The notes below the pieces were generated by a model. That model made no database searches. It was not told where the DNA came from and saw only the letters and a program-made list of their open reading frames with translations. Below are positions 16,270 to 55,195 of a DNA stretch of 64,000 nucleotides, piece by piece. The position numbers and the translations under genes are program-made. The DNA is from a virus (Duplodnaviria; Heunggongvirae; Uroviricota; Caudoviricetes): IMG/VR virus record IMGVR_UViG_2713896908_000007, one strand, 5' to 3'. Positions within the stretch are counted from its first letter, which is position 1. Each line of letters starts with the position of its first letter.

Positions 16270-16709
16270 TTGGCTGGGGTGTATGCGCTCTTGCGGCAGC
16301 CTTAGCTGATCGCTATTTGCTAAAACGCAAGGACATCACGAATTTAGAGCTTGGTGATGTGGAAATTAAACCGGGATTTATCCGGGTGCCGTTCAAATAT
16401 CGGTCTAAATTCCCGTTTTTGCGCGGTGCAACGGTCAGATATTGGCTCCGTGATGTTCAGAAGCCGACGACAGTGATTGAAGGCGAACAACGTTGCCTGA
16501 CGTCGGCTGAACAGGGCGAAAACAGTGAATGGTTGTACATACCCACTGAATATATGGGTAAAGGAGAACGACTGTGGCATTTCAACGTCATGGTTACGCA
16601 CGGCGACTCGTTCATTAACCCGTTGTATCGGATTTTCCCTGTTACTCAGCAAATCCGCAGAAGTTACGTAATAAATCTCGCACAGGATGTGTCAGATGAC
16701 GAAAAATAA
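16266..16709 (+). CDS. hypothetical protein (P1 LydB-like antiholin by position)
   Basis: 147-aa ORF, ATGA-coupled to the holin-like gene. Confidence 0.45.
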   Translation: MIGWGVCALAAALADRYLLKRKDITNLELGDVEIKPGFIRVPFKYRSKFPFLRGATVRYWLRDVQKPTTVIEGEQRCLTSAEQGENSEWLYIPTEYMGKGERLWHFNVMVTHGDSFINPLYRIFPVTQQIRRSYVINLAQDVSDDEK

Positions 16710-17298
16710 GTATGCAACGGTCGATTTTGACCAGGTTAATGAAAAGGGGCTTAAATCCCTTATCACGGCGATCAATAAAACCGGTGTTACGGTAATTGAG
16801 GTTGACTCCAGCAACCGCGCAACTACGAAAGATGGCGTTAAAGTTAAAACCGCAAAGTTGGTTCTTAACGACGGACAAATTCTTGCTATACAGGTAAATG
16901 ATACTGGCGATATATCGTCTGTGAAACTGAATGGAAAAGCTATTCCTAATGCTCAATCGCCAGATATCAAGACGCTTGGTACCGTCATGGGGCAAGCGGC
17001 CCACAAAAACGCTGCAAAATTCCAGAAATCACTGATCGCCAAAGCTAAACGTGTTGCCAATCCGGTAGACAAGAAACCGGCAGTTAAATCCAACTTTCAG
17101 CGCCTGCAAGAGGCAAAACAGCGGAATGCTCAGGTGGTTGCCGCTTATAAATCCGCGCAGAACTCGGTGTCTTTCAATCAACAGCAGATCACTGATTTGC
17201 GGGCGAAGCTGGATAAGGAGACAGGTCGACTCAATAACGAAAAGGCCAGGAATGGCGAACTCAAACGCCGTCTTAAGCAACTGAAAGCAGGAAATTAA
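16687..17298 (+). CDS. coiled-coil protein (P1 Hdf-like by position)
   Basis: 203-aa ORF (alternative ATG at 16696); local similarity to a segment of the downstream DarA-like protein (…KNAAKFQK… vs …KNSAKFQRAQKKKK…). Confidence 0.45.
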   Translation: MCQMTKNKYATVDFDQVNEKGLKSLITAINKTGVTVIEVDSSNRATTKDGVKVKTAKLVLNDGQILAIQVNDTGDISSVKLNGKAIPNAQSPDIKTLGTVMGQAAHKNAAKFQKSLIAKAKRVANPVDKKPAVKSNFQRLQEAKQRNAQVVAAYKSAQNSVSFNQQQITDLRAKLDKETGRLNNEKARNGELKRRLKQLKAGN

Positions 17299-17299
17299 C

Positions 17300-19219
17300 A
17301 TGGAACAGTTCAATATCAATAAAGGGGTGACGATCAAACCTGGGCTTGACGTGCTTCCCCCGCCAGTGACTGATGATGAATATCGCGCATTAATGGCCGG
17401 TGAGGACCGCTATCTGATGACGGAATCCAACACCCTGGAGGAAATCGAGGCTACGTTCTTCTATGACAAGCCGATCCACTGGTGTGCTACGGATTTACTG
17501 GAGGCGATTAGTTCTACTCGTTTGCAGTTACACCGGACCATGCAGGCATTTGTCCGGGCATTGAACCAGAAGCTGAATGGTACCGGAATCTCTGCGGGGA
17601 GTGATAAAACGGGGGATGTGGCCCAGAGCGGCGCGCGCGCGATCGGCGGCGCTGAAATTGGTCGGGCACGTAACGTTAACGGGCTGCCGGTCCTGCCAGC
17701 CATTATTCCGCTCAGTGATGGTCAGACTATCAGCATTTTGTTTCATAGCCCGACAGCGGAAAACCGGATCACCAATAGCGATACGCTGGTTGCTTTCCAG
17801 TTCTTACTGAATAAAAAAGACGTTACTCACACCGTTGCTCCGATGAGTGGACGTGATATGACGCTGGCGCAGGTCACCATGAAACTTGCCAACCTTGCAG
17901 AGAAAAACTCGGCAAAATTCCAGCGTGCGCAGAAGAAGAAAAAAGCCCTGGTTGATGAAATAACCCAACTACAGGCTGACAGTGACCAGAAAGAGGATGC
18001 CATGAGCGACCTCGCGGATCAGGTGGCAGCGGTAGAAGGCCAGAAGGCAGATCTGGAGCAGAAAATTAACGCGGTTGCTTCGGAAGCGGATTCTCTTTAT
18101 CAAGAAAATGAGCGTTTGCAGGCGGAGATTGAGCAGCTCAATCGCACTGGTGGGCGCGATACCATTGCTCCAACGGGGATGACTGGTGGGCACTCTCGCG
18201 CGCTGACGGATCGCCTTGCCAGTATCAAAAATCGTATGCATATGGACGGGGAAGCGACGCTCAGTAATGGTGCATCAATGAAGCAATTCATTGGGGACGG
18301 CAAAGGGTATGTCCAGTTAACCGATCCGGATGGCAGCGTGTACATGATCAAGGCTAAATCCATACAGGGTGTGGACATGGCAGATGCGATCGGCAAGCTG
18401 TTTAAAGCCTATAAAGCGGGTAACGTATCGGAATATCTGGTCCAACCAGAAGAGCCTAAACCGGAAAACGTCGAACCTGAACCAGCGGAAGATACCGGTA
18501 GCTCTTCGCCTGAACCAGAAGTCTCTGTAGGTGCATATCGATATGCCCTGCAAATGCGTCCGGCGGCCCCAGGCGCGATACCTGAAGGTAACAAAGCAAT
18601 TCTGCCGTGCCCTGATGAAGGTGACCCGTATTATGAATATGCGCGCTACGGCATTGTTACTTACGATACCCCGCTTTCTGATCAGCAAATGAGTGAGTAC
18701 GACCTGAAGTTATTGCCTCGCGAGGATTCTTTCGACTTCCTGGCGAAGACACTTACTAATGGTCCGTTTGGCAAATATGCACAAAAAGCTCTGGAGCTGG
18801 CCACCAGCTCACCAGACGAGTTCCGCGTAATGCTGAAAACTCAGTTTCAAAAAACTTTCCCCAATATTGCGTTTCCGGGGGGCGCAGGCACCGAGAAAAT
18901 GGTGCAGAGCATGATCAATGCATTGCAGGCCGAAGTCGGTGAGATTACTCAACCAGAATCGGCCCCGGAACAGCATGATGAAAAGGTTAGCGAAGCAGAT
19001 GCAGAGGCTAATAAAGCCATTGAATATCTCAATAACGTGATGGATATGCAAAGCACTGACATGGCGGAGATCCGCAACGCCAGGGGCAATGTCAGGGAAG
19101 CGATTGCTGCCCTTCAGGCTGCCGGACGTTTTGATGAAAACGAAGAGCTGGTTAACGGCGCAGCTCGCCACCTGGCTGATCTGCTGGTAGCAATCCAGAA
19201 AGCGGGAGGAGCGGCATGA
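17300..19219 (+). CDS. darA: antirestriction/head internal protein (P1 DarA-like)
   Basis: 639-aa ORF in the operon position and size expected for DarA; central coiled-coil; assignment by synteny from memory. Confidence 0.55.
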   Translation: MEQFNINKGVTIKPGLDVLPPPVTDDEYRALMAGEDRYLMTESNTLEEIEATFFYDKPIHWCATDLLEAISSTRLQLHRTMQAFVRALNQKLNGTGISAGSDKTGDVAQSGARAIGGAEIGRARNVNGLPVLPAIIPLSDGQTISILFHSPTAENRITNSDTLVAFQFLLNKKDVTHTVAPMSGRDMTLAQVTMKLANLAEKNSAKFQRAQKKKKALVDEITQLQADSDQKEDAMSDLADQVAAVEGQKADLEQKINAVASEADSLYQENERLQAEIEQLNRTGGRDTIAPTGMTGGHSRALTDRLASIKNRMHMDGEATLSNGASMKQFIGDGKGYVQLTDPDGSVYMIKAKSIQGVDMADAIGKLFKAYKAGNVSEYLVQPEEPKPENVEPEPAEDTGSSSPEPEVSVGAYRYALQMRPAAPGAIPEGNKAILPCPDEGDPYYEYARYGIVTYDTPLSDQQMSEYDLKLLPREDSFDFLAKTLTNGPFGKYAQKALELATSSPDEFRVMLKTQFQKTFPNIAFPGGAGTEKMVQSMINALQAEVGEITQPESAPEQHDEKVSEADAEANKAIEYLNNVMDMQSTDMAEIRNARGNVREAIAALQAAGRFDENEELVNGAARHLADLLVAIQKAGGAA

Positions 19220-19602
19220 CACTATCAGCTATTGAGTTAATGGACCTCAGCGATAAGTTGGATGCTCTGATGTCCAAAGCTGCTACCGCGAGTGGCATGG
19301 AGTTGCTGGATATCAGCGATGAAATTGACCAGATCATGCAACAGATGGGGTACGGCGCGTCCGGCGGCGGTAGTGGCGAGGAAAAACAACCTTCAGTACA
19401 TGATGGTGTGCCAAAACTGGTTGCTGATTTCCTGGCTGATAAATTCGTCGATCAGAGCACCGATGCATTTATCGGCACCTTGCAGGACTTGAGTCAATAT
19501 GTTGGCACATACATCGACCTGGACCAGGTTAAACAGCACACGGCGGCATGGATAGCCGCCAACATTAAAGAGGCTTCAGGTGTTCGCAGCAACTCTACAT
19601 GA
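19216..19602 (+). CDS. hypothetical protein (P1 DdrA-like by position)
   Basis: 128-aa ORF, ATGA-coupled to the DarA-like gene. Confidence 0.45.
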   Translation: MTLSAIELMDLSDKLDALMSKAATASGMELLDISDEIDQIMQQMGYGASGGGSGEEKQPSVHDGVPKLVADFLADKFVDQSTDAFIGTLQDLSQYVGTYIDLDQVKQHTAAWIAANIKEASGVRSNST

Positions 19603-19735: not shown

Positions 19736-20839
19736 TTATTCCCACTCTTGCAGGAAACGCTGACCGTACTGGTCGGCTACCAGCAGTGCAGCATAAACCT
19801 GATCTGGCGTTGCGCCGCCAGGCATGTTGTGGATGGTTTCACCTTCTGCACATGCCGCTTCTGCGACAATCCGCATTTTCGCCGGGATATCTTCTTTAAT
19901 ATCCAGTTGTGCCAGGGTAATTGGCAGGCCGACAGCATGGCACAGCGCAGCTACGGTTTCGATTTCTTCAACTGGTGCGTTTTCCAGAACCAGTTGCGTC
20001 AGCGTACCGAATGCCACTTTCTCACCGTGATAATAGTGATGCGCATCCGGAATGGCCGTCAGGCCATTGTGCACCGCGTGCGCCGCCGCCAGGCCGCCGC
20101 TTTCAAAGCCCACGCCGCTCAAATAGGTGTTAGCTTCAATCACACGTTCCAGCGCCGGAGTCACCACATGCTGTTCAGCGGCAAGCATCGCTTTTTCGCC
20201 TTCTTCCAGCAGGGTGTTGTAGCACAGTTCAGCCAGAGCCAGTGCTGCCTGAGTACATTTACCGCCCGCCATCGTGGTTGCGCCGCTGCGGGAACAGGCA
20301 CGTGCTTCAAACCAGGTTGCCAACGCATCGCCAATACCCGCCGCTAACAGACGTGCAGGTGCGCCAGCAACAATTTTGGTATCCACAATGACGCGTTCCG
20401 GGTTGTTTGGCAGCATCAGATAACGTTCAAACTCACCATCATCGGTGTAGATAACGGAAAGGGCGCTGCAAGGTGCGTCGGTTGAGGCAATGGTTGGGGC
20501 AACTGCAACAGGAACGCCCATAAAGTGTGCCAGTGCTTTGGCTGTATCGAGGGTTTTACCTCCGCCGATTCCCAGAATTGCGCTACACTGAGCATTCTCT
20601 GCAATACCCCGCAGACGATCGATTTCATTTTGCGAACATTCACCGCCGAACGGGGCAATTTCTACCTCTATTCCAGCATCTTTAAAACTTTTCTCAATAT
20701 TAGTTTGAGCAAAACCTAACACAAATTTGTCACCTACCACCAACCAATGTTCTGCCAGCGGTTTCAGGTATTCACCCAGGCGATTAATGACATCTGCGCC
20801 TTGGATGTATTTACCCGGTGATTGAATGATGCGGTCCAT
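19736..20839 (-). CDS. gldA: glycerol dehydrogenase (iron-containing alcohol dehydrogenase family)
   Basis: 367-aa ORF; N-terminus [30 protein letters not shown]… as in enterobacterial Gld[12 protein letters not shown] nucleotide-binding motif; AAAGGAG RBS; host-like GC content. Confidence 0.9.
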
Positions 20840-21142: not shown

Positions 21143-22831
21143 ATGTGTTTGAACGATCATACAGTTATGGCCACCAGCAGCGGCTACATCGGTGTGGCAC
21201 CGTATACCCGCTTGCTATTACATCAGGCATCCGGCATCAAAGATATTATTCACCTGATCAGGCTGCTTTCCCGTACAGATCCCCAGGATGAACAGCTTGT
21301 TCAAGTGCTTGCGCATTTTGTCCGAATGCCTGTTGCCGACGTGAAAAAATGGTGCCGATTATTCGGTATCAGCAATTCGTTACTTCGCGGATTGTTAAAT
21401 CACGCATCCTCCCTTGGGCGCGACGGATTTGATGAGATAGCGCAGGCGATAAAAAACGGAGATATGCCACCAGCTATTGACTGGTTTTCCATTCGCCCAA
21501 CCAGGGTGAAAGCATTCCTTAGTGCGGCGCAATCAGCATCACCATTGGCAGAAATGGTTCAGAGGTTGTCGCTCATATTCACAGATCATACCGCGTTCGG
21601 TGATCTGGCTCTGGACGAGATGAAAGAAGCCTCCATTCAGTGGGCCGCTCAACAAAATGAGGTTAACTCAGACTTCTTGCCAGCATTCAGGAAGGCCGTT
21701 AGTAAAGCGGATGATGCCCGTGGAATTCTGAAGGCATTTAAGGCATTGCAAAGTCGGGTTAATAAACATGTCGGTGATATCGATGGGGTAACGGCGGAAG
21801 GCAGGGATATCCTTAAAGAGCACGGCATAACGCCAGAGTTTATTGATGAGATCAGGACGGATATGCAGCGTGAGGTCGTATCGTCCCTGCAAATTGTAGC
21901 CAGAGCGTTGGCGGATGCTAATCCGAAGAGTGCGGCCATTGTTAACCGGGTTATTGGTGATATTGAAGCATCGGAGGGCATGGGGGCGCTGAAACTCTTC
22001 CTTTCGCGAGCGTTTAATCCTAACGGCAATATTCTCCCTGGCATTATTGGTGAGGCTAAAAGGTATGTCAGTGAAGAAGAACTTGAGCAGCTTGACCAAC
22101 TACTTAAGCGATTCTCATATAACCCGCAGACACGCTGGCAAATGAATCAGCGAAGTATGGGTTCGGTCCACGAGAAAGTGTTATCTGCCATGAACAGTGC
22201 GATCGCAAACTCATCCGTATCTGAAGAAAAAGCTCTTGAGTGGGCCGACTCTTTTATCACGGAAGAAGTGGAAGAAGCCCGCGCTGGACAGAATGGTGGG
22301 ATAGACCTGCGCAAGGAACTTGCTGATATTTATCGCCTGACCGGCGGTAAAATTTCGACCCTATCAAAGATAATTCACCACCAGGGAAGGGCATATGCAA
22401 ATCTTAATGGTATTGTTGCTGTCAATTTGAACGATGAAAATGCAAGCGCACTGTGGCACGAGCTTGGTCATCATCTTGAGTACAGTAACCCTGGTCTGTT
22501 AGAGAAAGCCAGGTCATTCCTGAAGGCCAATGTTGAAGGGGATAAGCCATCTTTCGTTAATATCGGTGGGCGTGGTAAACCTGAATGGTGCTTCAGATCT
22601 CGATTGAGTAATATTTATATGGCGAAGGTATACCCGCCAGCCTCAGTGAGTAACTCCGGGAAAATTCGGCAGAAAGCACCGACTATTTCCAAAACGTCAG
22701 CAACGGAAGTATTCTCTATGGCTCTTCAGTTGTATCATGACAAAGAGGCCGCTGCCGCATCACTGATGAATGGTGACGGATTGCTGGAACTGTTATTAGG
22801 TGTGGCAAAGGAGCTAAATAATGCAGATTAA
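21143..22831 (+). CDS. hypothetical protein with HExxH zinc-metallopeptidase-like motif (possible P1 DdrB counterpart)
   Basis: 562-aa ORF; …NASALWHELGHHLEYS… HExxH motif; own late-type promoter. Confidence 0.55.
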   Translation: MCLNDHTVMATSSGYIGVAPYTRLLLHQASGIKDIIHLIRLLSRTDPQDEQLVQVLAHFVRMPVADVKKWCRLFGISNSLLRGLLNHASSLGRDGFDEIAQAIKNGDMPPAIDWFSIRPTRVKAFLSAAQSASPLAEMVQRLSLIFTDHTAFGDLALDEMKEASIQWAAQQNEVNSDFLPAFRKAVSKADDARGILKAFKALQSRVNKHVGDIDGVTAEGRDILKEHGITPEFIDEIRTDMQREVVSSLQIVARALADANPKSAAIVNRVIGDIEASEGMGALKLFLSRAFNPNGNILPGIIGEAKRYVSEEELEQLDQLLKRFSYNPQTRWQMNQRSMGSVHEKVLSAMNSAIANSSVSEEKALEWADSFITEEVEEARAGQNGGIDLRKELADIYRLTGGKISTLSKIIHHQGRAYANLNGIVAVNLNDENASALWHELGHHLEYSNPGLLEKARSFLKANVEGDKPSFVNIGGRGKPEWCFRSRLSNIYMAKVYPPASVSNSGKIRQKAPTISKTSATEVFSMALQLYHDKEAAAASLMNGDGLLELLLGVAKELNNAD

Positions 22832-26714: not shown

Positions 26715-27734
26715 TTATTTAAATGGATTGATTGAATTATTAAACGTGATGATGCTTGTCTCACACGGTGCCTGGACGTTAGCCGCTTGCGGAACCTCCT
26801 TAATTTTCTTGGTGACAGGCAAGTTGCGTGCTCCAACTTTGATCAGAGATTCGAAAAGTGTGGCAACGATTTTTGCATCACCAGGTTCTTTGAGGCGGAA
26901 TGCGTCTTTTTGGGCGGCGGAGACGAAGATTGGGAGGTTATCCAGTTCGTCTTGCATCGCTGCCAGCACATCATCGCGGATACCCGCTGTTTCCTCCAGC
27001 AAAGCGATTCGCGCTTCAGCATCTGCGATCTTGGCCATTGCTTCGAGGTGGCGGCCCTGGCTTTCGAGTAGTGCAGTTTCCAGTTCTGCCGTACGCTCTG
27101 TCGCCTCCACCATCATTTCCAGTTCAGCCATTTTGCCGTAATGGGATATAACGGCCTGCACTGACTCGTCGGAGTACCCATGCGCCGCCAGGGACTCTGC
27201 CAGTAAGGATTTAGAATCCGCGCTTTCAAACATTCCGGCGCTGGCAGGATGATCCAGGCTGATATAGTTCGGCGTTGTCACATAATCCACACCATGGAAG
27301 CTGGTGGTTACAGCGATTTTCCCGGACTCACGCCCGCCAGTGGCCCAGCTCCAGCCACCAGCTCGGCTTTCGATCATCGCGGCGACAATTTTACCCGGCT
27401 CTGTGTTAAGAATTTCCTGTGTATGGGTAACGATTCCGTTGTCGTCAACAGATATAGCCACTGTGCGGCACGCTGGAACATTGTCGATTACGACCGGGCG
27501 ACCTTCCACCATGATCACGCTGGTTTCTGGTACTTCCAGTTTGCCGGTCAGCTGTCGGCGACCGTGACCGTAATAGCCGAAAAGCTCACCAAGGCGTAAA
27601 CCTTCCTGAGTTTCCTTGCTTTCAAGCATGGTCTTAACCGCGCTTAATACATACTGTCGCCCGTTCTGGCGACCTTTTCGAGCATTGCTATAGAGACAAA
27701 AGCGGTCAGTGACCGTTTTCAAAACATCAGTCAT
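26715..27734 (-). CDS. pro: head morphogenesis protein (protease/scaffold-like; P1 Pro-like by position)
   Basis: 339-aa ORF with C-terminal coiled-coil; lies in the darB-prt-pro-lyz arrangement remembered for P1. Confidence 0.55.
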   Translation of the reverse strand: MTDVLKTVTDRFCLYSNARKGRQNGRQYVLSAVKTMLESKETQEGLRLGELFGYYGHGRRQLTGKLEVPETSVIMVEGRPVVIDNVPACRTVAISVDDNGIVTHTQEILNTEPGKIVAAMIESRAGGWSWATGGRESGKIAVTTSFHGVDYVTTPNYISLDHPASAGMFESADSKSLLAESLAAHGYSDESVQAVISHYGKMAELEMMVEATERTAELETALLESQGRHLEAMAKIADAEARIALLEETAGIRDDVLAAMQDELDNLPIFVSAAQKDAFRLKEPGDAKIVATLFESLIKVGARNLPVTKKIKEVPQAANVQAPCETSIITFNNSINPFK

Positions 27735-29009
27735 TATATTGCCCTCCAGCTACCTTACCTAATGTCTGTTGGTATATTGGCTTTGATAACATTTTCGTCC
27801 GTGTATTCATTTATATACTCATTAGTTTCAATGTATTATATAGAACATGAAGCGTGCCTATAAATATCGATTCTATCCAACTCCCGAACAAACCGAGCTA
27901 TTAGCCCGGACTTTTGGGTGTGTGCGTTTTGTCTATAACAGCCTCCTTCGCTGGCGTACCGATGCATACTACGCACGCCATGAGAGGGTCGGCTATGCAC
28001 AAGCCAGCGCCAAATTAACGGCACTGAAAAAAGAACCAGAATTCGCTTGGCTGAATGACGTTTCCTGCGTCCCCCTCCAGCAGTCTCTGCGCCACCAACA
28101 AACGGCTTTTGCTAACTTTTTCGCCGGGCGTGCTGCATACCCAGTTTTTAAGAGCAAGCGGCATAAACAGGCCGCAGAACTAACTGCCAGCGCATTTAAA
28201 TACCGTGACGGCAAGCTGTACATGGCAAAGAGCAAAGAGCCGTTAGATGTTCGCTGGAGCCGTCCGTTGCCGTCTGCTCCATCCACTGTCACTATCACCA
28301 GGGATGCTGCCGGACGATATTTTGTATCCTGTCTCTGCGAGTTTGAGCCTGTATCACTGCCGATCACCGTTTCCACGGTCGGCATTGATATTGGTTTAAA
28401 AGATTTGTTCGTCACCGATACCGGTTTCAAAACTGGCAATCCTCGACACAACGCTAAATACGCGAAGCGATTAGCAGTGTTACAGCGCAGATTGAGCAAG
28501 AAACAAAAAGGCTCAAAGAACCGCGCCAAAGCACGTTTAAAGGTTGCCCGCCTCCACGCGAGAATAGTCGATTGTCGGATGGATAACCTGCATAAGTTGT
28601 CCCGCAAACTGATTAACGAAAACCAAGTTGTTTGCGTCGAATCCCTTAAAGTGAAAAACATGATCCGTAACCCGAAGCTGTCTAAAGCAATAGCTGACGC
28701 AGGCTGGAGCGAACTTGTACGCCAACTCCAGTACAAAGGAGAATGGGGTGGACGTAGCATTGTCGCTATCGACCAGTATTTCCCTTCTTCCAAACGTTGC
28801 AGCAGTTGCGGCTTCACCATGCAAAAAATGCCTCTTAATATTCGTAAATGGCACTGCCCGGAATGTGGCGCAGAGCATGATCGTGATATTAACGCGGCCC
28901 GTAATATAAAAGCTGCCGGGCTGGCAGTGTTAGCCCTTGGAGAGTCTGTAATTCCTAAGCCGCTTCATGTGGTTTAGGTCGGACTCTGTGAATTGGGAAT
29001 GTTTGCCGT
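27735..29009 (+). mobile_element. IS200/IS605-family TnpB-only element (boundaries approximate)
   Basis: Single tnpB ORF in opposite orientation between two co-directional head genes; no tnpA; ends not resolved. Confidence 0.4.
27847..28977 (+). CDS. tnpB: TnpB (RuvC-like RNA-guided nuclease of IS200/IS605 family)
   Basis: 376 aa; OrfB N-terminus MKRAYKYRFYPTPEQ…; RuvC motifs GIDIGLKD, ESLKV, CPECGAEHDRDINAARNI with CxxC…CxxC zinc finger. Confidence 0.9.
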   Translation: MKRAYKYRFYPTPEQTELLARTFGCVRFVYNSLLRWRTDAYYARHERVGYAQASAKLTALKKEPEFAWLNDVSCVPLQQSLRHQQTAFANFFAGRAAYPVFKSKRHKQAAELTASAFKYRDGKLYMAKSKEPLDVRWSRPLPSAPSTVTITRDAAGRYFVSCLCEFEPVSLPITVSTVGIDIGLKDLFVTDTGFKTGNPRHNAKYAKRLAVLQRRLSKKQKGSKNRAKARLKVARLHARIVDCRMDNLHKLSRKLINENQVVCVESLKVKNMIRNPKLSKAIADAGWSELVRQLQYKGEWGGRSIVAIDQYFPSSKRCSSCGFTMQKMPLNIRKWHCPECGAEHDRDINAARNIKAAGLAVLALGESVIPKPLHVV

Positions 29010-30740
<1,731 letters not shown>

Positions 30741-30773
30741 TTAATTAGAATAATTCGCATCGTGTTTTAACGG

Positions 30774-30792
30774 AATTTAACACTAGTCACTT
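30774..30792 (-). promoter_or_regulatory. candidate late promoter (AAGTGACTA-N4-TAAATT) for prt; near-palindromic, possibly bidirectional
   Basis: Motif in the 75-bp prt/darB divergent intergenic region. Confidence 0.45.
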
Positions 30793-30806
30793 GTTAAGGA
30801 TTACCA

Positions 30807-33800
30807 ATGAACAAGCTATCTATGGGGGTGTTTCGCTGTTCAAGCGTCAGCGAAATATTGAAATATATTAGGGCAATAACATCTCACCGAGCGCCGATTA
30901 AATACGGCGTGGAAAAGGTGGAAGGCAAAAGCTATGACCGACTGCGCCGGGAGGCGAATCAGAAGGCGATAGATTTGCTTAATTCGCTGGTGGACGGCGC
31001 GACACTGACAGATGAACAGCGCCAGATCCTGGCTGGGTACACCGGTGAAGGCGGCATTGGCGGGTCCGTCTCCGAATATTACACACCAAAGCCGATCGCT
31101 GAAGGTGTCTGGGAGATCATGAAGCTCTACGGCGCGGACGTAGGTAACACTCTGGAACCATCGGCGGGAACCGGCGTTTTTAATGAGACAAAACCGGTTG
31201 GTACGGTGATGACCGCGACTGAGATCAGCAGTGTTTCCGGTCGTATAAACCAGTTGTTACACCCGGAAGACAGCGTACAGATTTCCCCGTTCGAACAGCT
31301 GGCTATAAGCACGCCTAACGATTCATTCGACCATGTTGTGGGTAACGTTCCGTTCGGCGGTCGTGATAACACACGCAACATCGATAAGCCTTACGCAGAA
31401 GAAACGGACATGGGTTCTTACTTCATGCTCCGCATGCTGGACAAGATAAAGCCAGGCGGATTCATGTGCGTGATTGTGCCGCCGTCCATTGTTTCAGGTT
31501 CAAACATGAAGCGGTTACGCCTGCGCCTATCACGGAAAGCTGAATTTCTTGGTGCCCACCGCTTGCCTACCGGTACTTTTGACGCAAACGGGACCAGTAC
31601 AGTCGTTGATGTGGTGCTGATGCGCAAACATCCGGCAGAGATGGCTGAGAAAATCCCCCAGGTGGATGAAAGCACTCTTGAATCGGCAAATGTGCTTTGG
31701 CCAACGTTTATTTCAGGCAAGTGGTTTGAAAAGGACGGACGCCGGTTTGTTCATGGTGCCCAGGAAAAGGGCTTCCAGGGGCGTATTGAGGTTCGTGCCG
31801 ACGGGCAGATTGATAACCAGGCTCTTAAAACGAAGCTGATTCATCGTTTCGAAAGTCGTATCGACTGGTCTTTGCTCGATATGGCTGAACCGTCACCGAC
31901 CGCAGATGTTGTTGATGAAGGGGAAATGCGCCTGATTAATGGCGTATGGCAAAAATATGCTGGTGGTCGCTGGATTGAAGCTGATGCTGGTAAGGAGCTT
32001 AAGATTGATGCTGCCAGTTATGGCGCGGATAGCTGGGAGGCTCTTCAGCGTAACCTGACTACAACAGAAGGCCGTCTCGGTATGACATTTACCCAGATGG
32101 CAAATGTCCGCGATAAGTACACCACATCAATCAGCGACGATATGGTGCAGCTGGTGGACTGGATTAACAGCCAGCCTGAAAAATACCGTGAACGCTTGTA
32201 TCGCGGGGCGATGATTGGCCGGATGTTAATTGAATATCAGGACATGAAGGCCGCCGGGCATAGTGCTGAACAAATCGAACAGCAGCGCCTTTCTCTGGTA
32301 TCCCGTTTGCAGGCAGAGATTGATCGCTTTGGTAATCCTGGTCGCGGTCCTATAGCGAAATTGTCGGGGAGCGGTGCGCGCGCCTGGTTTGCTTTCCGTG
32401 GTGCGATTAAGCTGGATGGCACTATTTCTGACGAGCTGACAGGAAAGCTGGTTACGCATGATTCCAGCGCCAGTTATGACTCCACCAGCTATCAGGACAC
32501 CCTGCGTTATCTCTATAGCGATCTTACCCGCGATCCAATCCAGCTCGATGATTTCCGCCTTGCGTTTACCGGCGAACTGCCAGCCAGTGATGAAGAGTTG
32601 CTTAATTTATTGGCCAGCACCCCTGGTATTGCGGTTTCACCGTATGGCGGGATTGTTCCGTTCGCCCGCGCCACCAGCGGCGACATTAACGAGATAGTGG
32701 CTCCAAAACAGGAATTTCTTGCCACACTCCCCGACGGTCCAGTAAAGAACAACGTCCTTAATCAGCTGGCAGCGATCGAAGAGAAGCGCATCAAGACGCC
32801 AGCAGAGAATATCCGGTTTAAGCTCAATAGCCGTTGGTTTGACCGTTCCGTCATTCTGGAATTTTTGCAGGAAAACGGCTATCCGGATCTGCGCTATGTG
32901 CAGTCAGTGCAGCTGGAAGGCGACGAAATGGTTTCTGACACCTATCACGGTGGTGATGGTCTGTTCGTCGGGCACCGATACGGTGTCGTCCAGCGCAAGG
33001 ATAAAGAAACAGGCGAGATCCGCTACGAGTGGGACCGTAAATCAGGTGAAAACGCGACCGGGTTCCCGGCACAGCTGGAAAAGTATCTCAATGGTGCGCG
33101 TATCGGTGGCAAAGATAGCGCGACGGCGAACGGCTACCGCGAGCAGATGGCACTGCTTGAGGACCAGTTCAATAAGTGGATCAAGACGCACGATCGCTAC
33201 GATGAACTGGTTGCCAAATACAACGATGTGTTCAATAGCAATATCCCGTATGAACACTCTGGCGATCCGCTTGGGTTGAAGGGATTAAGCGGTAAGCGCC
33301 AGCCATTTGATTACCAGAATAGCGAGGTGCGCCGACTGTCCGAAGATGGGCGCGGCATCTTGGGCTTCGGCACCGGGCTGGGTAAAACCACGACCGCGCT
33401 GGCGCTTGAGGCGTTCAACTATGAGAACGGTCGCTCCACCCGTACTGCTTATGTAGTGCCTAAATCAGTGCTGGAAAACTGGTATTACGAAGCAAAAGAG
33501 TTCCTGAGTGAAGAGGCATTCAGTAACTACCTGTTCGTTGGTCTTGATGTGCTGATGGATGGCGATCAGATTCGCCAGGTGCCGGTGCTCGACGAGAACG
33601 GTAAACCTGTCCTTGGCGCTGATGGCGCTCCCGTTATGCGCGATGCTCTTAAACTGGCAGATGAAGCCACTATCACAGCAAGGATGAACGCGATTCCGCA
33701 CTCAAATTACCGTGCAGTCGTGTTTACCAAAGAACAATACGCCCGCATTCCGCTACGTGATGACACCGTAGATGAGCATGCACAAGACATGCTTTATGAC

Positions 33801-36581
33801 TTCGTTGCTGCCGGACGTGTGGCCAGCGCAATGGATTCCGACTCCCACCGCAAAGAGGCGGCGCGTCGCCGGGTATTGTCGGAGTATTCAGATACCGGTA
33901 CCGAAAAAGCAGAGAAGTATCCGTACTTTGAGGATATGGGCTTCGACAGCGTGATTGCTGACGAAGGCCACAACTACCGCAATAGCTATAAAAATGGTCG
34001 CGAAGCGTCACAGCTGGCCTATCTGCCCACCAGCGCGGTGGCGCAATCGGCGCGAGATATGGCAATCAAAAACGCGTACCTGATGAAAAAGAATGGCGGG
34101 CGCGGGCCGGTTCTCCTGAGTGCAACGCCAGTCGTTAACACCCCGATCGATGCATACAACATGCTTTCTCATGTTCTGCCGAAGGAATACTGGCAGAAGA
34201 TGGGGATCTACGGTCCTGATGACTTCGTTAAATTCTTCGGCAAGACCAGGCTGGAAACGGTACAGAAAATCAGCGGTGAAGTTGAAGAAAAAATGGCGCT
34301 GGTGGGCTTTGAAAACCTTGATGCGCTGCGCGGCATATTCCATCGCTGGACAACGCTTAAAACAGCGGAAGACGTTAAGGATACCGTGGAGATCCCGGAG
34401 CTGGACGAGCACCAGCAGGATGCACCACTTACTGAAGAACAACTGGCGGCGTATGAAGAATTGCGTCAGCAGGCGGAAGCGGCGGCCAAAGCCAACAATG
34501 GCGTAACGACCTCGGTCAATGAAGACGGCGTGATTGAGCACGAGAAAGCCCGTCCGATCTTCTCAATAATCAGGGATATGGACCGCGTATGTACTGACAT
34601 GGACCTGTACTATCGCCGGATCACCTATCGTTTCCTGCCGGAGTACGCCGATGCGGTGCAGCAGCTGGCGGACAGTTTGCCTAAACAAGCCACCAGCGAA
34701 GACGACGACAGTGATGATTCAATCACGCAGCAATCGCAATACTCCCTGATAGATAAGGGCGAGTTTATTCAGTTGCAGGTTCCGGAAGCGTTCGAGCAGG
34801 AAGTGAATAAGCGCCTGGCCAGGTTTGGCATTGACGAACAGACCGTAACTCACCCCGTTACGCCCAAATACGCGAAGCTGATTGCCACGCTGAAGGAGTT
34901 TTTCCCGGAAGGTAAGCAAATCATCTTCACCGATGAAAAAACGCAGCACCAGAAGCTCAAGCGCATTATCTGCAATGCTCTTAACCTTGAACCTTCAAAG
35001 GTGGGGATACTGAATGCTCAGACGGTTGCCGAGGCAGGTAAAACCGGTAAGAAACTGAAAGCGGTTAAACCGCCGAAAGAGTTACCGGATGAACCAACAG
35101 ATGCACAGATAGCGAAATACAACGAGCAAATGGCTCTGTATGACGCCTATATCGCGCAGCAAAATGAAATGTCGCTGGGCGGGCTGGAAAAGATTGCTGC
35201 CGACTTCCAGGAGGGCCGGACTCCGATCATCATCTGCAACAAAAAGGCAGAGGTGGGTATCAACCTGCATCGAGGAACGACTGACATCCATCATCTGACG
35301 TTGCCATGGACACCAGCCAGTATCGCACAGCGTAACGGTCGCGGTGCCCGAGTTGGCTCCAACCGTGCAAGCGTTCGCGTTCACTACTACTGCGGCAAGG
35401 GTTCTTTCGATGAATACCGACTGAAGACGCTGAAGCGTAAAGCAGGCTGGATCTCCGATATCCTCCGTTCAGATAAGTCAGAAATGGAGAACGCCGACGC
35501 CAACGATATGATCGAAATGCAGATGTATACCGCTAAGGATGATGGCGAACGTCTGGCAATGATGCAGGTTCAAATGGATAAGGCGAAAGCCGCGCAACGC
35601 GCTCGCCAGAAAGAACAGGCTACTATCGACCTTCAGAACTACATCAAGGCGCAGCACGCAGCTGGTGAGGATGTGGAGGTGCTTACCGCTGAATTAGAGC
35701 GAAGCAAAGCGGAACTTGAAAAGACCACCGCCGACGTCGCCAAATTCAAACAGGCGGTAATGGCCAAAGCAGCTGATAACGCAGACTGGAAAGCCCGCTG
35801 GGGTAGCGTCCATCACACAGACCGTACGTTGTTAGCACAGTATCGCGCGTCGTTGAAAAGCGCCATTCAGCGCAAGGCTAATATCTCTCAAGCCATCTCC
35901 CGCTATGAGAAATTATTGAACCGTACTCAGAAGGCCGCGACGGATATCAAACGCCTGCGCCCGCTGGTGGAGGATGCAATAAATAAAGGCATTATGGATG
36001 TTGATCCTGACTTGGTTAACCATGCGAGTGAGTTCCTTGTTATCGGCGATCGCTCATGGCGTGTAGGCCAATACTACGATTGTGCCGGTGATATCGTTCG
36101 CATTAAGTCGCTGGACTTCGACAGCCAGCGCGCAGACGTGGAGATTATCTTTACCTTCAAAGGTACCAAATCGGGTAACTGGGATGTGAAGACGCTGGAT
36201 AAACAGGTTGATGTAACTCCCGATGAAGATGCTGTTATGCAGAAAATCAGTGGTGGCGTCTCCATCGCCGGGATTAACGACATCATTTCCTGTGACGATT
36301 TCTACCGTTTCCAGCAGCGCGGCATGATCAAAATCACTGACTCATACGGCGTTCAGACTACAGAGTCAGGCTATAGCATTGATTTTGTTGGTACCTATAC
36401 GGACCCACTGAAGCATGCGGTTTACCCGGATCGCCGTGACGGCGCGCTGAAGTCGTCAATTGCAAAATGGGTGCTTGGTATGATGTCGGAAGGGAATAAC
36501 CGCCAGATCCGTTCGGCAGAAACATTCCTGGTTGAACTGTTTGGCTCCAATTATGGCGATGGGAGATACGCTATCCCCTGA
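30807..36581 (+). CDS. darB: antirestriction methyltransferase-helicase (P1 DarB-like)
   Basis: 1924-aa ORF; N6-adenine methyltransferase motifs (EPSAGTGVF, GNVPFGG); SF2 helicase motifs (GTGLGKTT, VIADEGH, QRNGRGAR). Confidence 0.85.
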   Translation: MNKLSMGVFRCSSVSEILKYIRAITSHRAPIKYGVEKVEGKSYDRLRREANQKAIDLLNSLVDGATLTDEQRQILAGYTGEGGIGGSVSEYYTPKPIAEGVWEIMKLYGADVGNTLEPSAGTGVFNETKPVGTVMTATEISSVSGRINQLLHPEDSVQISPFEQLAISTPNDSFDHVVGNVPFGGRDNTRNIDKPYAEETDMGSYFMLRMLDKIKPGGFMCVIVPPSIVSGSNMKRLRLRLSRKAEFLGAHRLPTGTFDANGTSTVVDVVLMRKHPAEMAEKIPQVDESTLESANVLWPTFISGKWFEKDGRRFVHGAQEKGFQGRIEVRADGQIDNQALKTKLIHRFESRIDWSLLDMAEPSPTADVVDEGEMRLINGVWQKYAGGRWIEADAGKELKIDAASYGADSWEALQRNLTTTEGRLGMTFTQMANVRDKYTTSISDDMVQLVDWINSQPEKYRERLYRGAMIGRMLIEYQDMKAAGHSAEQIEQQRLSLVSRLQAEIDRFGNPGRGPIAKLSGSGARAWFAFRGAIKLDGTISDELTGKLVTHDSSASYDSTSYQDTLRYLYSDLTRDPIQLDDFRLAFTGELPASDEELLNLLASTPGIAVSPYGGIVPFARATSGDINEIVAPKQEFLATLPDGPVKNNVLNQLAAIEEKRIKTPAENIRFKLNSRWFDRSVILEFLQENGYPDLRYVQSVQLEGDEMVSDTYHGGDGLFVGHRYGVVQRKDKETGEIRYEWDRKSGENATGFPAQLEKYLNGARIGGKDSATANGYREQMALLEDQFNKWIKTHDRYDELVAKYNDVFNSNIPYEHSGDPLGLKGLSGKRQPFDYQNSEVRRLSEDGRGILGFGTGLGKTTTALALEAFNYENGRSTRTAYVVPKSVLENWYYEAKEFLSEEAFSNYLFVGLDVLMDGDQIRQVPVLDENGKPVLGADGAPVMRDALKLADEATITARMNAIPHSNYRAVVFTKEQYARIPLRDDTVDEHAQDMLYDFVAAGRVASAMDSDSHRKEAARRRVLSEYSDTGTEKAEKYPYFEDMGFDSVIADEGHNYRNSYKNGREASQLAYLPTSAVAQSARDMAIKNAYLMKKNGGRGPVLLSATPVVNTPIDAYNMLSHVLPKEYWQKMGIYGPDDFVKFFGKTRLETVQKISGEVEEKMALVGFENLDALRGIFHRWTTLKTAEDVKDTVEIPELDEHQQDAPLTEEQLAAYEELRQQAEAAAKANNGVTTSVNEDGVIEHEKARPIFSIIRDMDRVCTDMDLYYRRITYRFLPEYADAVQQLADSLPKQATSEDDDSDDSITQQSQYSLIDKGEFIQLQVPEAFEQEVNKRLARFGIDEQTVTHPVTPKYAKLIATLKEFFPEGKQIIFTDEKTQHQKLKRIICNALNLEPSKVGILNAQTVAEAGKTGKKLKAVKPPKELPDEPTDAQIAKYNEQMALYDAYIAQQNEMSLGGLEKIAADFQEGRTPIIICNKKAEVGINLHRGTTDIHHLTLPWTPASIAQRNGRGARVGSNRASVRVHYYCGKGSFDEYRLKTLKRKAGWISDILRSDKSEMENADANDMIEMQMYTAKDDGERLAMMQVQMDKAKAAQRARQKEQATIDLQNYIKAQHAAGEDVEVLTAELERSKAELEKTTADVAKFKQAVMAKAADNADWKARWGSVHHTDRTLLAQYRASLKSAIQRKANISQAISRYEKLLNRTQKAATDIKRLRPLVEDAINKGIMDVDPDLVNHASEFLVIGDRSWRVGQYYDCAGDIVRIKSLDFDSQRADVEIIFTFKGTKSGNWDVKTLDKQVDVTPDEDAVMQKISGGVSIAGINDIISCDDFYRFQQRGMIKITDSYGVQTTESGYSIDFVGTYTDPLKHAVYPDRRDGALKSSIAKWVLGMMSEGNNRQIRSAETFLVELFGSNYGDGRYAIP

Positions 36582-37560
36582 AGCAATTCAGGAGAAAATA
36601 GCGGATGCGATCGCCAGAATGCCGGAAAAAACAAACCAGGGGGCTACTCGTAACGGGGATTCTGAACTTGAAGTCACCAATGCCATTTTCGGTACCAATG
36701 AGTTCCGGGCGTCAGATTATGAGATCACCACAGCACAGTTTGGCACCATTGGCATTTACAGCAATAAAGACGAGATCAAGCAGGCAATGGACGCAGCAAG
36801 TGCGCGCATTGCAGCAGAACGGAAAGCCAATCTGAATCATGCAGTCGCCGCGCTGACTCAATCGTGGGTAACAGCAATCAGGGAGGCCGCCACCACAGGA
36901 AAAATCACACCGGCAATTGCGGATGTCGTAAACGACGGCTCTAAATTTATGGATGCCTATCAAATGGATGCGGTGCAGTTGCCATCAGCCTATGGCCAAC
37001 TCAGCTATCGCATGACCTACAACCTGGTATCAATGTTTTCCGACCTTGCCATCCTTGGGCTGGTGGACCTTAACGAGGTTACGCCGGAATTGCTCAGCAT
37101 GCGCAAGAACCATGTGGAGATATTGCACAGAATTAACACGGTACTTTCCGGGCGCACCGATGAAGAGAAACAGGCAGACGCTGATCGGATAAACCTAGCC
37201 CTTGGCAACATCACGGAGGAAGAAATTGCCGCCAGAAACGAGAAACAAGAAGAGTTATCATCAATACAGGGTGATGCCACCAGCATAGCTCAGTCTCTTG
37301 GTCTGAATTATCGCGTATCCACCGCCGACCTGAAGATGATGTACGCACCAAAATTCGCCGCTGGCGAGGTATTTGGGCTTCAGGAAGCCTCAGGCATGAA
37401 AGGCGTTCTTTTCCGTGCGAAAGACGCAATCAAGGCGAAATTCGGCGCTCGCTGGCTGCCAGCGAAGGCGAAGAACAGCGATTTCCCGGGTAACTGGTGG
37501 ATTATCGAGACAAAACACAACGTGGCGGACGTTCTGGCCGTCATCCAACAATACGCATAA
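36553..37560 (+). CDS. downstream ORF overlapping DarB-like 3-prime end (separate gene or frameshifted DarB C-terminal segment)
   Basis: Track ORF 36532..37560 (342 aa, TTG); first ATG at 36553; +1 frame relative to DarB-like ORF with 29-50 nt overlap. Confidence 0.45.
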   Translation: MAMGDTLSPEAIQEKIADAIARMPEKTNQGATRNGDSELEVTNAIFGTNEFRASDYEITTAQFGTIGIYSNKDEIKQAMDAASARIAAERKANLNHAVAALTQSWVTAIREAATTGKITPAIADVVNDGSKFMDAYQMDAVQLPSAYGQLSYRMTYNLVSMFSDLAILGLVDLNEVTPELLSMRKNHVEILHRINTVLSGRTDEEKQADADRINLALGNITEEEIAARNEKQEELSSIQGDATSIAQSLGLNYRVSTADLKMMYAPKFAAGEVFGLQEASGMKGVLFRAKDAIKAKFGARWLPAKAKNSDFPGNWWIIETKHNVADVLAVIQQYA

Positions 37561-37581
37561 CAGGAGCGCCCGGTTCGCCGG

Positions 37582-38034
37582 GTGTCGCATAATATGGCCA
37601 CACTATCTGATACAATAAAACCGAATAAAACATATCTTGAGGCGGTACTCCGTACAGCGTTGTTAGGAAAGACAGAAGACGAATACGTTGATTTCTTCCT
37701 GTCAGGGCTACGCGGGCGATTACTGAAAAATCCCCGCCTGTACCGCAGCTATGGTCCATACTGGCCGGAAATTAAAAAATTATTACTGGAGCGCGGTTAT
37801 GGTAATTTCGGTCGTCTCGTTGACCGTGACGTTCGCAAAATTTACCGTTATGACCGCCCGGCGCTAACACTCATAGCCGCGACGCTCTACAGCCAGGAGC
37901 GTTTTGATAATGGTCAGATATACTCAGCCTGGCATTTACTGCCAGTGCCTGAAGAAGTTGACGACCAGGACTATGAGTTTGAGTCTTACGATTTGGAAGT
38001 TGAAGCCTTGGCACAGGCTGGAGAGAAAACTTGA
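37582..38034 (+). CDS. hypothetical protein
   Basis: 150-aa ORF, co-directional, 21 nt after previous stop. Confidence 0.5.
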   Translation: MSHNMATLSDTIKPNKTYLEAVLRTALLGKTEDEYVDFFLSGLRGRLLKNPRLYRSYGPYWPEIKKLLLERGYGNFGRLVDRDVRKIYRYDRPALTLIAATLYSQERFDNGQIYSAWHLLPVPEEVDDQDYEFESYDLEVEALAQAGEKT

Positions 38035-38279
38035 AAAAGCGATACTACACAGTAAAGCATGGGACGCTACGAGCATTACAAGAGTTTGCTGACAAGCATA
38101 ACGTTGAGGTGCGCAGGGAAGGGGGAAGTAAAGCTCTGCGCATGTACCGTCCTGACGGAAAATGGCGGACGGTCGTCGATTTCAAAACTAACAGCGTTCC
38201 CCAGGGCGTCCGCGACCGGGCATTCGAAGAATGGGAGCAGATCATCATAGATAATGCATTGCTTCTGAATGCTGATTAA
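38031..38279 (+). CDS. lxc: small regulatory protein (P1 Lxc/Bof-like by size and position)
   Basis: 82-aa ORF, ATGA-coupled; P1 Lxc is remembered as 82 aa at this position. Confidence 0.5.
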   Translation: MKKRYYTVKHGTLRALQEFADKHNVEVRREGGSKALRMYRPDGKWRTVVDFKTNSVPQGVRDRAFEEWEQIIIDNALLLNAD

Positions 38280-38290
38280 TGGTTTTGTTT

Positions 38291-38325
38291 CCCGGTATCG
38301 TATTATACCGGGAAATATCTTTTTA
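38291..38325 (+). terminator. stem-loop, possible terminator
   Basis: cccggtat/ataccggg stem; T-run begins 7 nt after the stem. Confidence 0.4.
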
Positions 38326-38327
38326 TA

Positions 38328-38735
38328 TTAACCCGCGGCTGCAATTAGTGCTGACCCAACCGCCAGTGTGGTGACAAGGCCTATAATGACCACTGTCGCT
38401 GTTACCCCTCCTGCAACAGCAGCTCCAGTCTTTGTTTTGGATAACTCTTTCTTTTCTAGAGAAATGATTTCACCCATAGGAATAGACTGGTTGTTAATAC
38501 CATTGATATATTGTGGGGTAACTTTCGATACTGTCATTTCACCTTCGCTACCTGATTTTAACTTGTATTTAATTAGGTCACCAGCATATATCGGCGGCTC
38601 CGTTAAATAATAGGTACTTCTTTCAAGATTTTTCTGCTGTATGTTAACTCCCTGATAAGACTGACATCCACATAACACAAGCGATAAAATTAGCGTTGTC
38701 AGTAATTTTCTTTTGTTTTTTATCATTGCCAGCAC
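38328..38735 (-). CDS. AT-rich lipoprotein with C-terminal Gly/Ala-rich membrane segment
   Basis: 135-aa ORF; signal peptide with lipobox-like LVLCGC; C-terminal AVAGGVTATVVIIGLVTTLAVGSALIAAAG; AT-rich with AT-rich upstream region. Confidence 0.6.
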   Translation of the reverse strand: MLAMIKNKRKLLTTLILSLVLCGCQSYQGVNIQQKNLERSTYYLTEPPIYAGDLIKYKLKSGSEGEMTVSKVTPQYINGINNQSIPMGEIISLEKKELSKTKTGAAVAGGVTATVVIIGLVTTLAVGSALIAAAG

Positions 38736-52294: not shown

Positions 52295-53857
52295 ATGAAA
52301 ATGACAAGTATTCAACAACGTGCAGAGCTTCATCGTCAAATCTGGCAAATTGCTAACGATGTCAGGGGTTCGGTCGATGGATGGGATTTTAAGCAATACG
52401 TTCTGGGCGCACTTTTCTACCGTTTTATCAGCGAAAATTTTTCCAGTTATATGGAAAATGGTGATGACAGCATCTGTTATGCGGCACTTGATGACGGCAT
52501 TATTACTGATGACATTAAAGACGATGCCATCAGAACCAAAGGCTACTTCATCTACCCCAGTCAGCTTTTCTGCAACGTAGCGGCGAAAGCAAATACCAAT
52601 GACAGACTGAATGCAGATTTAAATAGTATCTTCGTTGCTATCGAAAGCTCTGCTTACGGTTACCCTTCAGAAGCTGACATCAAAGGTTTGTTTGCTGATT
52701 TTGATACAACCAGTAACCGCCTGGGTAACACCGTTAAGGATAAAAATGCCCGCCTGGCTGCGGTTCTGAAAGGGGTCGAAGGGTTAAACCTTGGTGACTT
52801 CAATGAACATCAGATTGACCTGTTCGGTGATGCCTATGAGTTCCTGATTTCTAACTATGCGGCAAATGCCGGTAAGTCAGGCGGTGAGTTCTTTACACCG
52901 CAGCACGTCTCCAAGCTGATTGCACAACTGGCTATGCACGGGCAGACCCACGTTAACAAAATCTACGACCCGGCCGCGGGTTCCGGTTCGCTGTTGTTGC
53001 AGGCTAAAAAGCAGTTTGATAACCATATCATTGAAGAAGGCTTTTTCGGACAGGAAATCAACCATACGACCTATAACCTGGCACGTATGAACATGTTTTT
53101 GCACAACATCAACTACGACAAGTTTGATATCAAGCTGGGCAATACGCTGACTGAACCGCACTTCAGAGATGAAAAACCGTTTGATGCCATCGTCTCTAAC
53201 CCGCCGTATTCGGTGAAATGGATTGGCAGCGATGACCCGACGCTGATTAACGATGAACGTTTTGCCCCGGCTGGCGTTCTGGCCCCCAAATCCAAAGCTG
53301 ACTTTGCGTTTGTACTACATGCGCTGAACTATCTTTCGGCCAAAGGTCGCGCCGCGATTGTCTGCTTCCCGGGTATTTTTTACCGTGGCGGCGCGGAGCA
53401 GAAAATCCGTCAGTATCTGGTTGACAATAACTATGTCGAAACCGTGATTTCACTGGCACCGAACCTGTTCTTTGGCACCACCATTGCCGTAAATATTCTG
53501 GTGCTGTCTAAACATAAAACGGATACCAAAGTTCAGTTTATTGACGCCAGCGAACTGTTCAAAAAAGAGACTAACAACAACATCCTGACCGATGCCCATA
53601 TCGAAAAAATTATGCAGGTATTTTCCAGCAAGGAAGATGTTGCTCATCTGGCGAAATCTGTCACGTTTGAGACCGTTGTCGCGAATGACTATAACCTGTC
53701 GGTAAGCAGCTATGTGGAAGCGAAAGATAACCGCGAAATTATCGATATCGGTGAGCTGAATGCTGAGCTGAAAACCACGGTCAGCAAAATCGACCAGTTG
53801 CGCAAAGATATTGATGCGATTGTGGCTGAAATTGAAGGCTGCGAGGTGCAGAAATGA
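52295..53857 (+). CDS. hsdM: type I restriction-modification methyltransferase subunit HsdM
   Basis: 520 aa; SAM motif [11 protein letters not shown] and catalytic NPPY (SNPPYSVKW). Confidence 0.95.
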
Positions 53858-55074: not shown

Positions 55075-55195
55075 TTGACCATTGCTACCGACCGGGCCAC
55101 CTTAACACCCGGTCAGTATATAGACTATTTTTTACACGCTGGAAGTCACCATTAACGCCCTTCCGGCCCTTGCCAGACGGCACAAAGGATACGCT

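Follow-up and report, generated by a model that had tools for sequence, protein, structure and literature searches.

Two overlapping reading frames in a P1-like phage-plasmid of Escherichia albertii are probably one darB gene split by a 14-bp deletion

Introduction

Where phage P1 carries a single darB gene, the viral record studied herein (IMGVR_UViG_2713896908_000007, of which a stretch of 64,000 nucleotides, the window, was analyzed) shows two overlapping open reading frames (ORFs), and this raises the question of whether they represent two genes or one gene that has been broken. DarB of P1 (AAQ13985.1; 2255 amino acids, aa; 251 kDa) is a virion-packaged methyltransferase-helicase that shields incoming DNA against the type I restriction systems EcoB and EcoK. 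A preliminary description, made from the sequence alone, had recognized a DarB-like ORF (ORF1) and a second ORF that overlaps its end in another frame (ORF2), and had left three options: a genuine overlapping gene resembling ulx, a frameshift that truncates the C-terminus of DarB, or a sequencing indel. The comparisons presented here indicate that the two ORFs are probably a single darB split by a 14-bp deletion, rather than a new overlapping gene.

Results

The case for a split gene is carried by a single lesion. In a global alignment of window positions 30807-37560 with P1 darB, we found 133 mismatches and a single indel, the 14-bp deletion, which is the only indel in the 6.75 kb of darB relative both to P1 and to the E. 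albertii plasmid pEA16-1_1 (NZ_CP117651.1; DarB WP_273819654.1), the closest complete record to the window. The DarB frame is kept up to D1918; beyond it, the deletion puts ORF1 out of frame, a stop follows six codons on, and the remainder of the protein (from G1924/D1925) lies in the frame of ORF2. By tblastn, residues 1-1918 of P1 DarB matched positions 30807-36560 at 98.9% identity, and residues 1920-2255 matched positions 36550-37557 at 96.7% identity. Likewise, on phrog_1685, a PHROG profile of DarB length (2278 positions), ORF1 covered positions 1-1931 and ORF2 positions 1936-2278. Aligned to P1 DarB across the junction, as the preliminary description had proposed, both ORFs are colinear with one DarB, with the 14-bp gap between them; the truncating frameshift among its options is thereby supported, in the form of a lone deletion at 36561/36562 relative to P1 and to the nearest relative.

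The layout of the two frames was also as first described, with a 1924-aa ORF running to 36581 and a second ORF, in the +1 frame, running from 36532 or 36553 to 37560. Specifically, the mechanical start of ORF2 is a TTG at 36532 (342 aa), its first in-frame ATG stands at 36553, and its frame relative to ORF1 is given by (36532-30807) mod 3 = 1; ORF2 overlaps ORF1 by 50 nucleotides (nt) if it begins at the TTG and by 29 nt if it begins at the ATG. The same division was made by the gene caller used for the source assembly, whose two predicted products measure 1924 and 335 aa. The size of roughly 250 kDa that had been given for P1 DarB agrees with the reported protein of 2255 aa and 251.4 kDa (PMC9024508), and a continuous DarB polypeptide of ~2220-2255 aa that includes the C-terminal module is absent from the window.

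The suggestion of a genuine, Ulx-like overlapping gene did not hold. ORF2 corresponds to the C-terminal 336 residues of DarB, and ulx is a separate gene at 37594-38034; since ORF2 is the C-terminus of DarB and an intact ulx is the next gene, a Ulx-like overlapping gene is excluded. ORF2 was also considered as Ulx itself, but it matched DarB profiles only, with Ulx (phrog_1629) encoded by the gene that follows. Such an arrangement would further be expected to have a counterpart in a reference DarB that ends at the equivalent position, and none was found among P1, P7, SJ46, Cronobacter phage JK004, and pEA16-1_1, in all of which DarB is continuous, at 2224-2255 aa. The darB gene is well described, and the allele in the window is a disrupted member of the DarB family and not a new gene arrangement.

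Table 1. Positions in the window of the two darB fragments, their junction, and the related P1-type genes
Feature	Positions	Strand	Remarks
darB 5' fragment (ORF1)	30807..36581	+	ATG start, 1924 aa; DarB residues 1-1918, then out-of-frame GRYAIP and TGA
darB 3' fragment (ORF2)	36553..37560	+	colinear with DarB residues 1920-2255 (tblastn); clear identity from ~G1924
Deletion junction	36561..36562	+	14 bases missing: TAATCGCGTCATAT in P1, TAATCGCGTCATAC in pEA16-1_1
CCC_TGA, new stop of ORF1	36576..36581	+	+1 "shifty stop"; a tRNA-Pro slip from CCC to CCT enters the ORF2 frame
prt (portal protein)	29010..30731	-	divergent from darB, as in P1
ulx	37594..38034	+	intact, 146 aa, 98.6% identical to P1 Ulx; phrog_1629
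lxc (modulator of C1)	38031..38279	+	intact; darB-ulx-lxc synteny confirmed
hdf, darA, ddrA	16687..19602	+	each aligned end to end with its P1 counterpart
gldA (glycerol/propanediol dehydrogenase of the iron-containing alcohol dehydrogenase, Fe-ADH, family)	19736..20839	-	occupies the place of the 5' half of ddrB in P1
ddrB remnant	21143..22831	+	only DdrB residues 448-995; the 5' 447 codons are missing

The genomic setting of the two ORFs is that of P1 darB. The window corresponds to positions 30001-94000 of contig BBWC01000018.1 (99,393 bp) in the draft assembly GCA_001515045.1, and derives from a P1-like phage-plasmid of E. albertii. No paper was found that cites the BBWC01 accession. When positions 30000-38500 were compared by megablast with phage records, the matches, at ~98% identity and covering 97% of the query, were to phages P1, P7, SJ46, RCS47, and others. 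The match to pEA16-1_1 was closer still: between window positions 10999 and 56908, 45,923 bases aligned at 99.948% identity, and the differences over these 45.9 kb amount to 9 single-nucleotide polymorphisms (SNPs), one single-T indel in a T-run, and one 14-bp gap. In P1 (AF234172), the locus order is prt (divergent), darB (6768 nt, 2255 aa), ulx (441 nt), and lxc, with the ulx start 34 nt past the darB stop. This context recurs in the window, where prt is divergent, ulx and lxc lie downstream, and the spacing to ulx is identical.

The deleted junction itself is private to the GCA_001515045.1 assembly. With a 100-nt probe centered on it, matches were obtained in 15 phage records, 603 plasmid records, and 619 records of E. 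coli genomes. Wherever the whole probe matched, the alignment extended over 114 nt of the subject, with the 14 bases present; the other matches comprised half of the probe. No junction-spanning record, whether of a phage, a plasmid, or E. coli, had the deleted form. Further, the exact 36-nt deleted junction gave 0 matches in genome, viral, and metagenome contig collections, whereas the undeleted junction, used as a positive control, was recovered from 85 viral contigs and 2 genome contigs. Among the best 60 plasmid matches to the whole of darB, nearly all span exactly 6768 nt.

All recognizable catalytic domains sit in ORF1. These are an N6-adenine methyltransferase domain (PF02384, aa 145-290, E = 1e-7, together with PF07669, both above gathering scores) and an SNF2/SF2 helicase (PF00176 and PF04851 at aa 833-911, and PF00271, Helicase_C, at aa 1455-1517). 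The capsid-targeting signal of DarB resides in its N-terminal 30 residues (PMC9024508), and the DarB of the window aligns to P1 DarB from residue 1, ungapped, at 98.9% identity (tblastn), so that the targeting region is present. In P1, DarB is the last Dar protein to be loaded, at ~40 copies per virion (PMC9024508), and it acts in the next host, in cis, on the incoming DNA (PMC5512222). In the window, the ribosome would enter the +1 frame after residue 1918, and the main product would be a truncated, 1924-aa DarB, made from the darB promoter, that would keep the targeting signal, the methyltransferase, and the helicase and would lack the conserved 337-aa tail. To judge from its N-terminus, this truncated protein is probably still packageable. 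Any product of re-initiation on ORF2 would be without the N-terminal packaging signal, and so would not be carried in the virion to the next host.

What the truncation removes is a module that is conserved in length, with 73% identity to its counterpart in JK004 and 89% over the last 55 residues; relative to P1, it shows 11 synonymous versus 8 nonsynonymous codon differences. The module, represented by ORF2, had no sequence match in Pfam, NCBIfam, or the PDB. An AlphaFold model of the last 525 residues had a mean pLDDT (predicted local distance difference test score) of 41.9, with only the last ~90 residues near or above 70, and Foldseek returned no match for that model in the PDB at E <= 0.001. 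The conservation of the module suggests that it is needed for DarB function and, on that basis, the darB of the window is most likely a recent pseudogene or else a null or strongly impaired allele.

The stop codon that ends ORF1 offers one route by which some near-full-length DarB might still be made. The sequence ATC CCC TGA A at 36573-36582 reads in its +1 frame (CCT GAA ...) as exactly the ORF2 frame, and CCC_UGA has been documented as especially prone to +1 shifts in E. coli (PMC3082878). In silico, a slip at this site restores the DarB frame and joins the two frames into one 2250-aa ORF, in which VIASYGDTLSP is replaced by GRYAIP (11 residues by 6) at the junction, with the predicted junction peptide GRYAIPEAIQEK; outside the junction, this product equals pEA16-1_1 DarB except for A342T and L1569I, both within the N-terminal 1918 residues. 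Nevertheless, such a leaky rescue is very improbable. No stimulatory element stands at the right spacing, the GGGAG created by the junction ending 10 nt upstream of the CCC, and in prfB the stimulatory element lies ~3 nt upstream of the shift site. The CCC_TGA site arose by accident with the deletion and was not conserved anywhere searched. Frameshifting at a bare CCC_UGA is generally <=2%, is undetectable for some E. coli genes, and reaches up to 15% only with a special 5' context (PMC3082878); set against ~40 DarB copies per P1 virion (PMC9024508), slippage of <=2% gives <1 copy. A meaningful rescue at the shifty stop is, in our assessment, unlikely, and there is only a slight chance that the frameshift is not fully inactivating and that slip-made, 2250-aa DarB keeps some anti-restriction activity. 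If true, translation would here be "correcting", by accident, an indel in the gene for a giant virion protein. A programmed +1 frameshift was considered separately and rejected; a shift-prone site is present, but the two-frame arrangement was not conserved in any junction-spanning record.

A second route would leave the split itself functional, with the C-terminal module made as a separate protein that works with the truncated DarB. The in-frame ATGs of ORF2 at 36553 and 36559 overlap the end of ORF1 and could permit termination-reinitiation, and the gene caller of the source assembly did call ORF2 as a gene. However, no relative examined shows the split, and the ORF2 homologues in a set of 5.8 billion proteins were all P1-type DarB, with at least 72% identity over the aligned parts; those with names were mostly "helicase, partial", and no distinct stand-alone family was found among them. 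Further, no Shine-Dalgarno sequence precedes any in-frame start of ORF2 (duplex -1.5 to -3.3 kcal/mol), by a measure that also gives weak values for some genuine P1 genes and hence discriminates poorly, and delivery calls for the N-terminal capsid-targeting signal, which ORF2 lacks (PMC9024508). We consider a functional two-gene split exceedingly improbable.

The DarB pathway of this plasmid is affected at a further gene, ddrB, of which only the 3' part remains (Table 1); in P1, DdrB helps to add DarB to the capsid (PMC9024508). The ddrA-gldA-ddrB' arrangement was found in 16 plasmid records, and 15 of the 15 listed were from E. albertii. We examined the darB locus in 11 truncated-ddrB plasmids, including the window, a small survey in which the events are not phylogenetically independent (the E. 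albertii relatives compared were CP045689.1, NZ_CP034163.1, NZ_CP043269.1, NZ_CP117591.1, NZ_CP117679.1, NZ_CP043260.1, NZ_CP034164.1, CP043244.1, and NZ_CP030784.2). Intact darB was present in 1 of the 11 (pEA16-1_1). The gene carried the 14-bp frameshift in one plasmid (the window) and a nonsense mutation at codon 52 (Q52*) in another (p2RM10507), had been cleanly deleted together with ulx, so that prt is followed directly by lxc, in three (p2RM10705, p06-3542, and pEA36_1), and was replaced, along with ulx, by a fimbrial operon in the remaining five (p2RM9974, pEA4_97, p2014C-4015-2, p2RM15115, and 2012EL-1823B). The replacing operon is of the Pap/Pef type, and 2 of the 5 plasmids that carry it keep an annotated remnant ORF of ~65 aa. 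For all plasmid records, a rough comparison gives prt in 489 and near-full-length darB in 441, and in one E. coli plasmid (NZ_CP027199.1) the mobile element IS3000 is inserted in darB.

These data are suggestive of a link between darB loss and ddrB truncation but do not prove it. Because ddrB is already truncated and relatives have repeatedly lost darB, the loss of darB is probably tolerated in the window; the lineage would already have been left with a truncated form of the protein that aids DarB loading. The pattern further suggests that this E. albertii plasmid lineage can dispense with the DarB branch or is losing it. As a minor lead, the DarB arm (ddrB, darB, and ulx) may have been dismantled stepwise in E. 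albertii P1-like plasmids after the insertion of gldA into ddrB.

Several points weigh against reading the allele as a real and tolerated loss of function. First, the exact 1924-aa product is on record in one assembly only, GCA_001515045.1. Second, no microhomology, direct repeat, or convincing hairpin was found at the deletion endpoints (fold z = -0.67), which leaves the mutational mechanism unexplained. Third, a tail-less DarB may still be active, the lost module having no recognizable fold or family. Finally, darB and ddrB do not always decay together: in p2RM9976 (NZ_CP043264.1), darB is frameshifted (a span of 6766 versus 6768 nt, with ORFs of 1491 and 810 aa) though ddrB is intact at 995 aa, and in pEA16-1_1 darB is intact though ddrB is truncated.

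The first two of these points also bear on the alternative that the strain's darB is intact and that the 14 bases dropped out when the draft contig was assembled or its gaps were closed. An artefact of this kind would fit a deleted junction that is private to one draft whole-genome shotgun assembly and absent from every other collection searched, a nearest relative that differs at the junction locus by the 14 bp only, and endpoints with no microhomology or repeat to account for a biological deletion. The contig is otherwise very clean, however: over 45.9 kb it departs from the complete plasmid pEA16-1_1 at 9 SNPs and a single homopolymer indel, and at that homopolymer indel (14192) it is the window that has an intact ORF, of 382 aa, and the complete plasmid that has a broken one. 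Moreover, the loss of 14 bp in nonrepetitive sequence is not a typical short-read or consensus error, which counts against an artefact, and darB has often been damaged or lost independently within this plasmid lineage; such repetition fits a real, tolerated pseudogenizing mutation. On balance, we consider an assembly or sequencing artefact unlikely, and a real mutation much the more probable source of the deletion.

The T-run at 14192 lies within an ORF at 13772-14920 (-), where the window is one T longer than pEA16-1_1 and the ORF of the latter is split into 111 and 249 aa; the homologue of the 382-aa product in p2RM10705 is annotated as a lipopolysaccharide N-acetylglucosaminyltransferase.

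Other differences from P1 were observed around the locus. Upstream of darB, a TnpB gene (IS200/IS605 family, RNA-guided endonuclease; 27847-28977, +) is inserted between pro (26715-27734, -) and prt (29010-30731, -). In P1, pro, which encodes the prohead protease, and prt overlap; prt of the window encodes 573 aa, versus 569 aa in P1. A further TnpB gene lies at ~48523-49698. The type III res/mod genes of P1 are absent from their lxc-adjacent position in the window, and the type I restriction-modification genes hsdM and hsdS (named per the pEA16-1_1 annotation) occupy ~52315-55500. Of the 9 SNPs relative to pEA16-1_1, 3 are grouped at 55060-55493.

Discussion

The practical consequence of our findings is one of annotation. 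The 1924-aa and 335-aa products are best recorded as one disrupted darB (a pseudogene), and not as a methylase-helicase followed by a hypothetical protein, and the 335-aa ORF does not qualify as a new overlapping gene. Beyond annotation, the truncated allele offers a natural test of the need for the uncharacterized, 337-aa C-terminal module of DarB. The biological point is a modest one, namely, that darB is usually deleted, replaced, or mutated in truncated-ddrB P1-like plasmids of E. albertii.

Pieces of darB have also been recorded as separate entries elsewhere. Three PHROG families, phrog_21007, phrog_21829, and phrog_29705 (857, 462, and 780 positions, respectively), are made of partial DarB sequences. 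This composition indicates that several phage genomes have been deposited with darB annotated as fragments; in ON470615.2 and ON470617.2, for instance, the region appears as 5-6 hypothetical proteins.

Among known systems, the CCC_UGA shifty-stop sites of E. coli pheL and of Listeria phage tail genes share the stop of ORF1 with the window, where the +1 frame likewise continues, into the remaining DarB. Unlike those sites, however, that of the window arose with the mutation and is neither conserved nor accompanied by a known stimulator.

Other broken darB alleles provide a closer comparison, specifically those of p2RM9976 (a -2 frameshift, 1491 + 810 aa), p2RM10507 (Q52*), and NZ_CP027199.1 (the IS3000 insertion). 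Their lesions, each inactivating, are independent and differ in position and type, and none is the 14-bp deletion.

Among intact alleles, that of Cronobacter phage JK004, whose product shares 84% aa identity, encodes 2224 aa in one ORF and is free of indels between residues 1900 and 2255. The darB of pEA16-1_1 forms an uninterrupted ORF of 6768 nt, annotated as "N-6 DNA methylase", and this plasmid and the window share a near-identical backbone, the gldA insertion, and the truncated ddrB. Relative to the pEA16-1_1 gene, the darB of the window shows two SNPs (A342T and L1569I) besides the 14-bp deletion. The window carries the derived state at one of the two, and two such changes are uninformative on relaxed selection. 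Finally, relative to P1 DarB itself, the window retains the N-terminus, the methyltransferase domain, the SNF2 helicase domains, and the synteny, and it departs from P1 in that the frame is broken after residue 1918 and the C-terminal 337 residues are encoded in the other frame.

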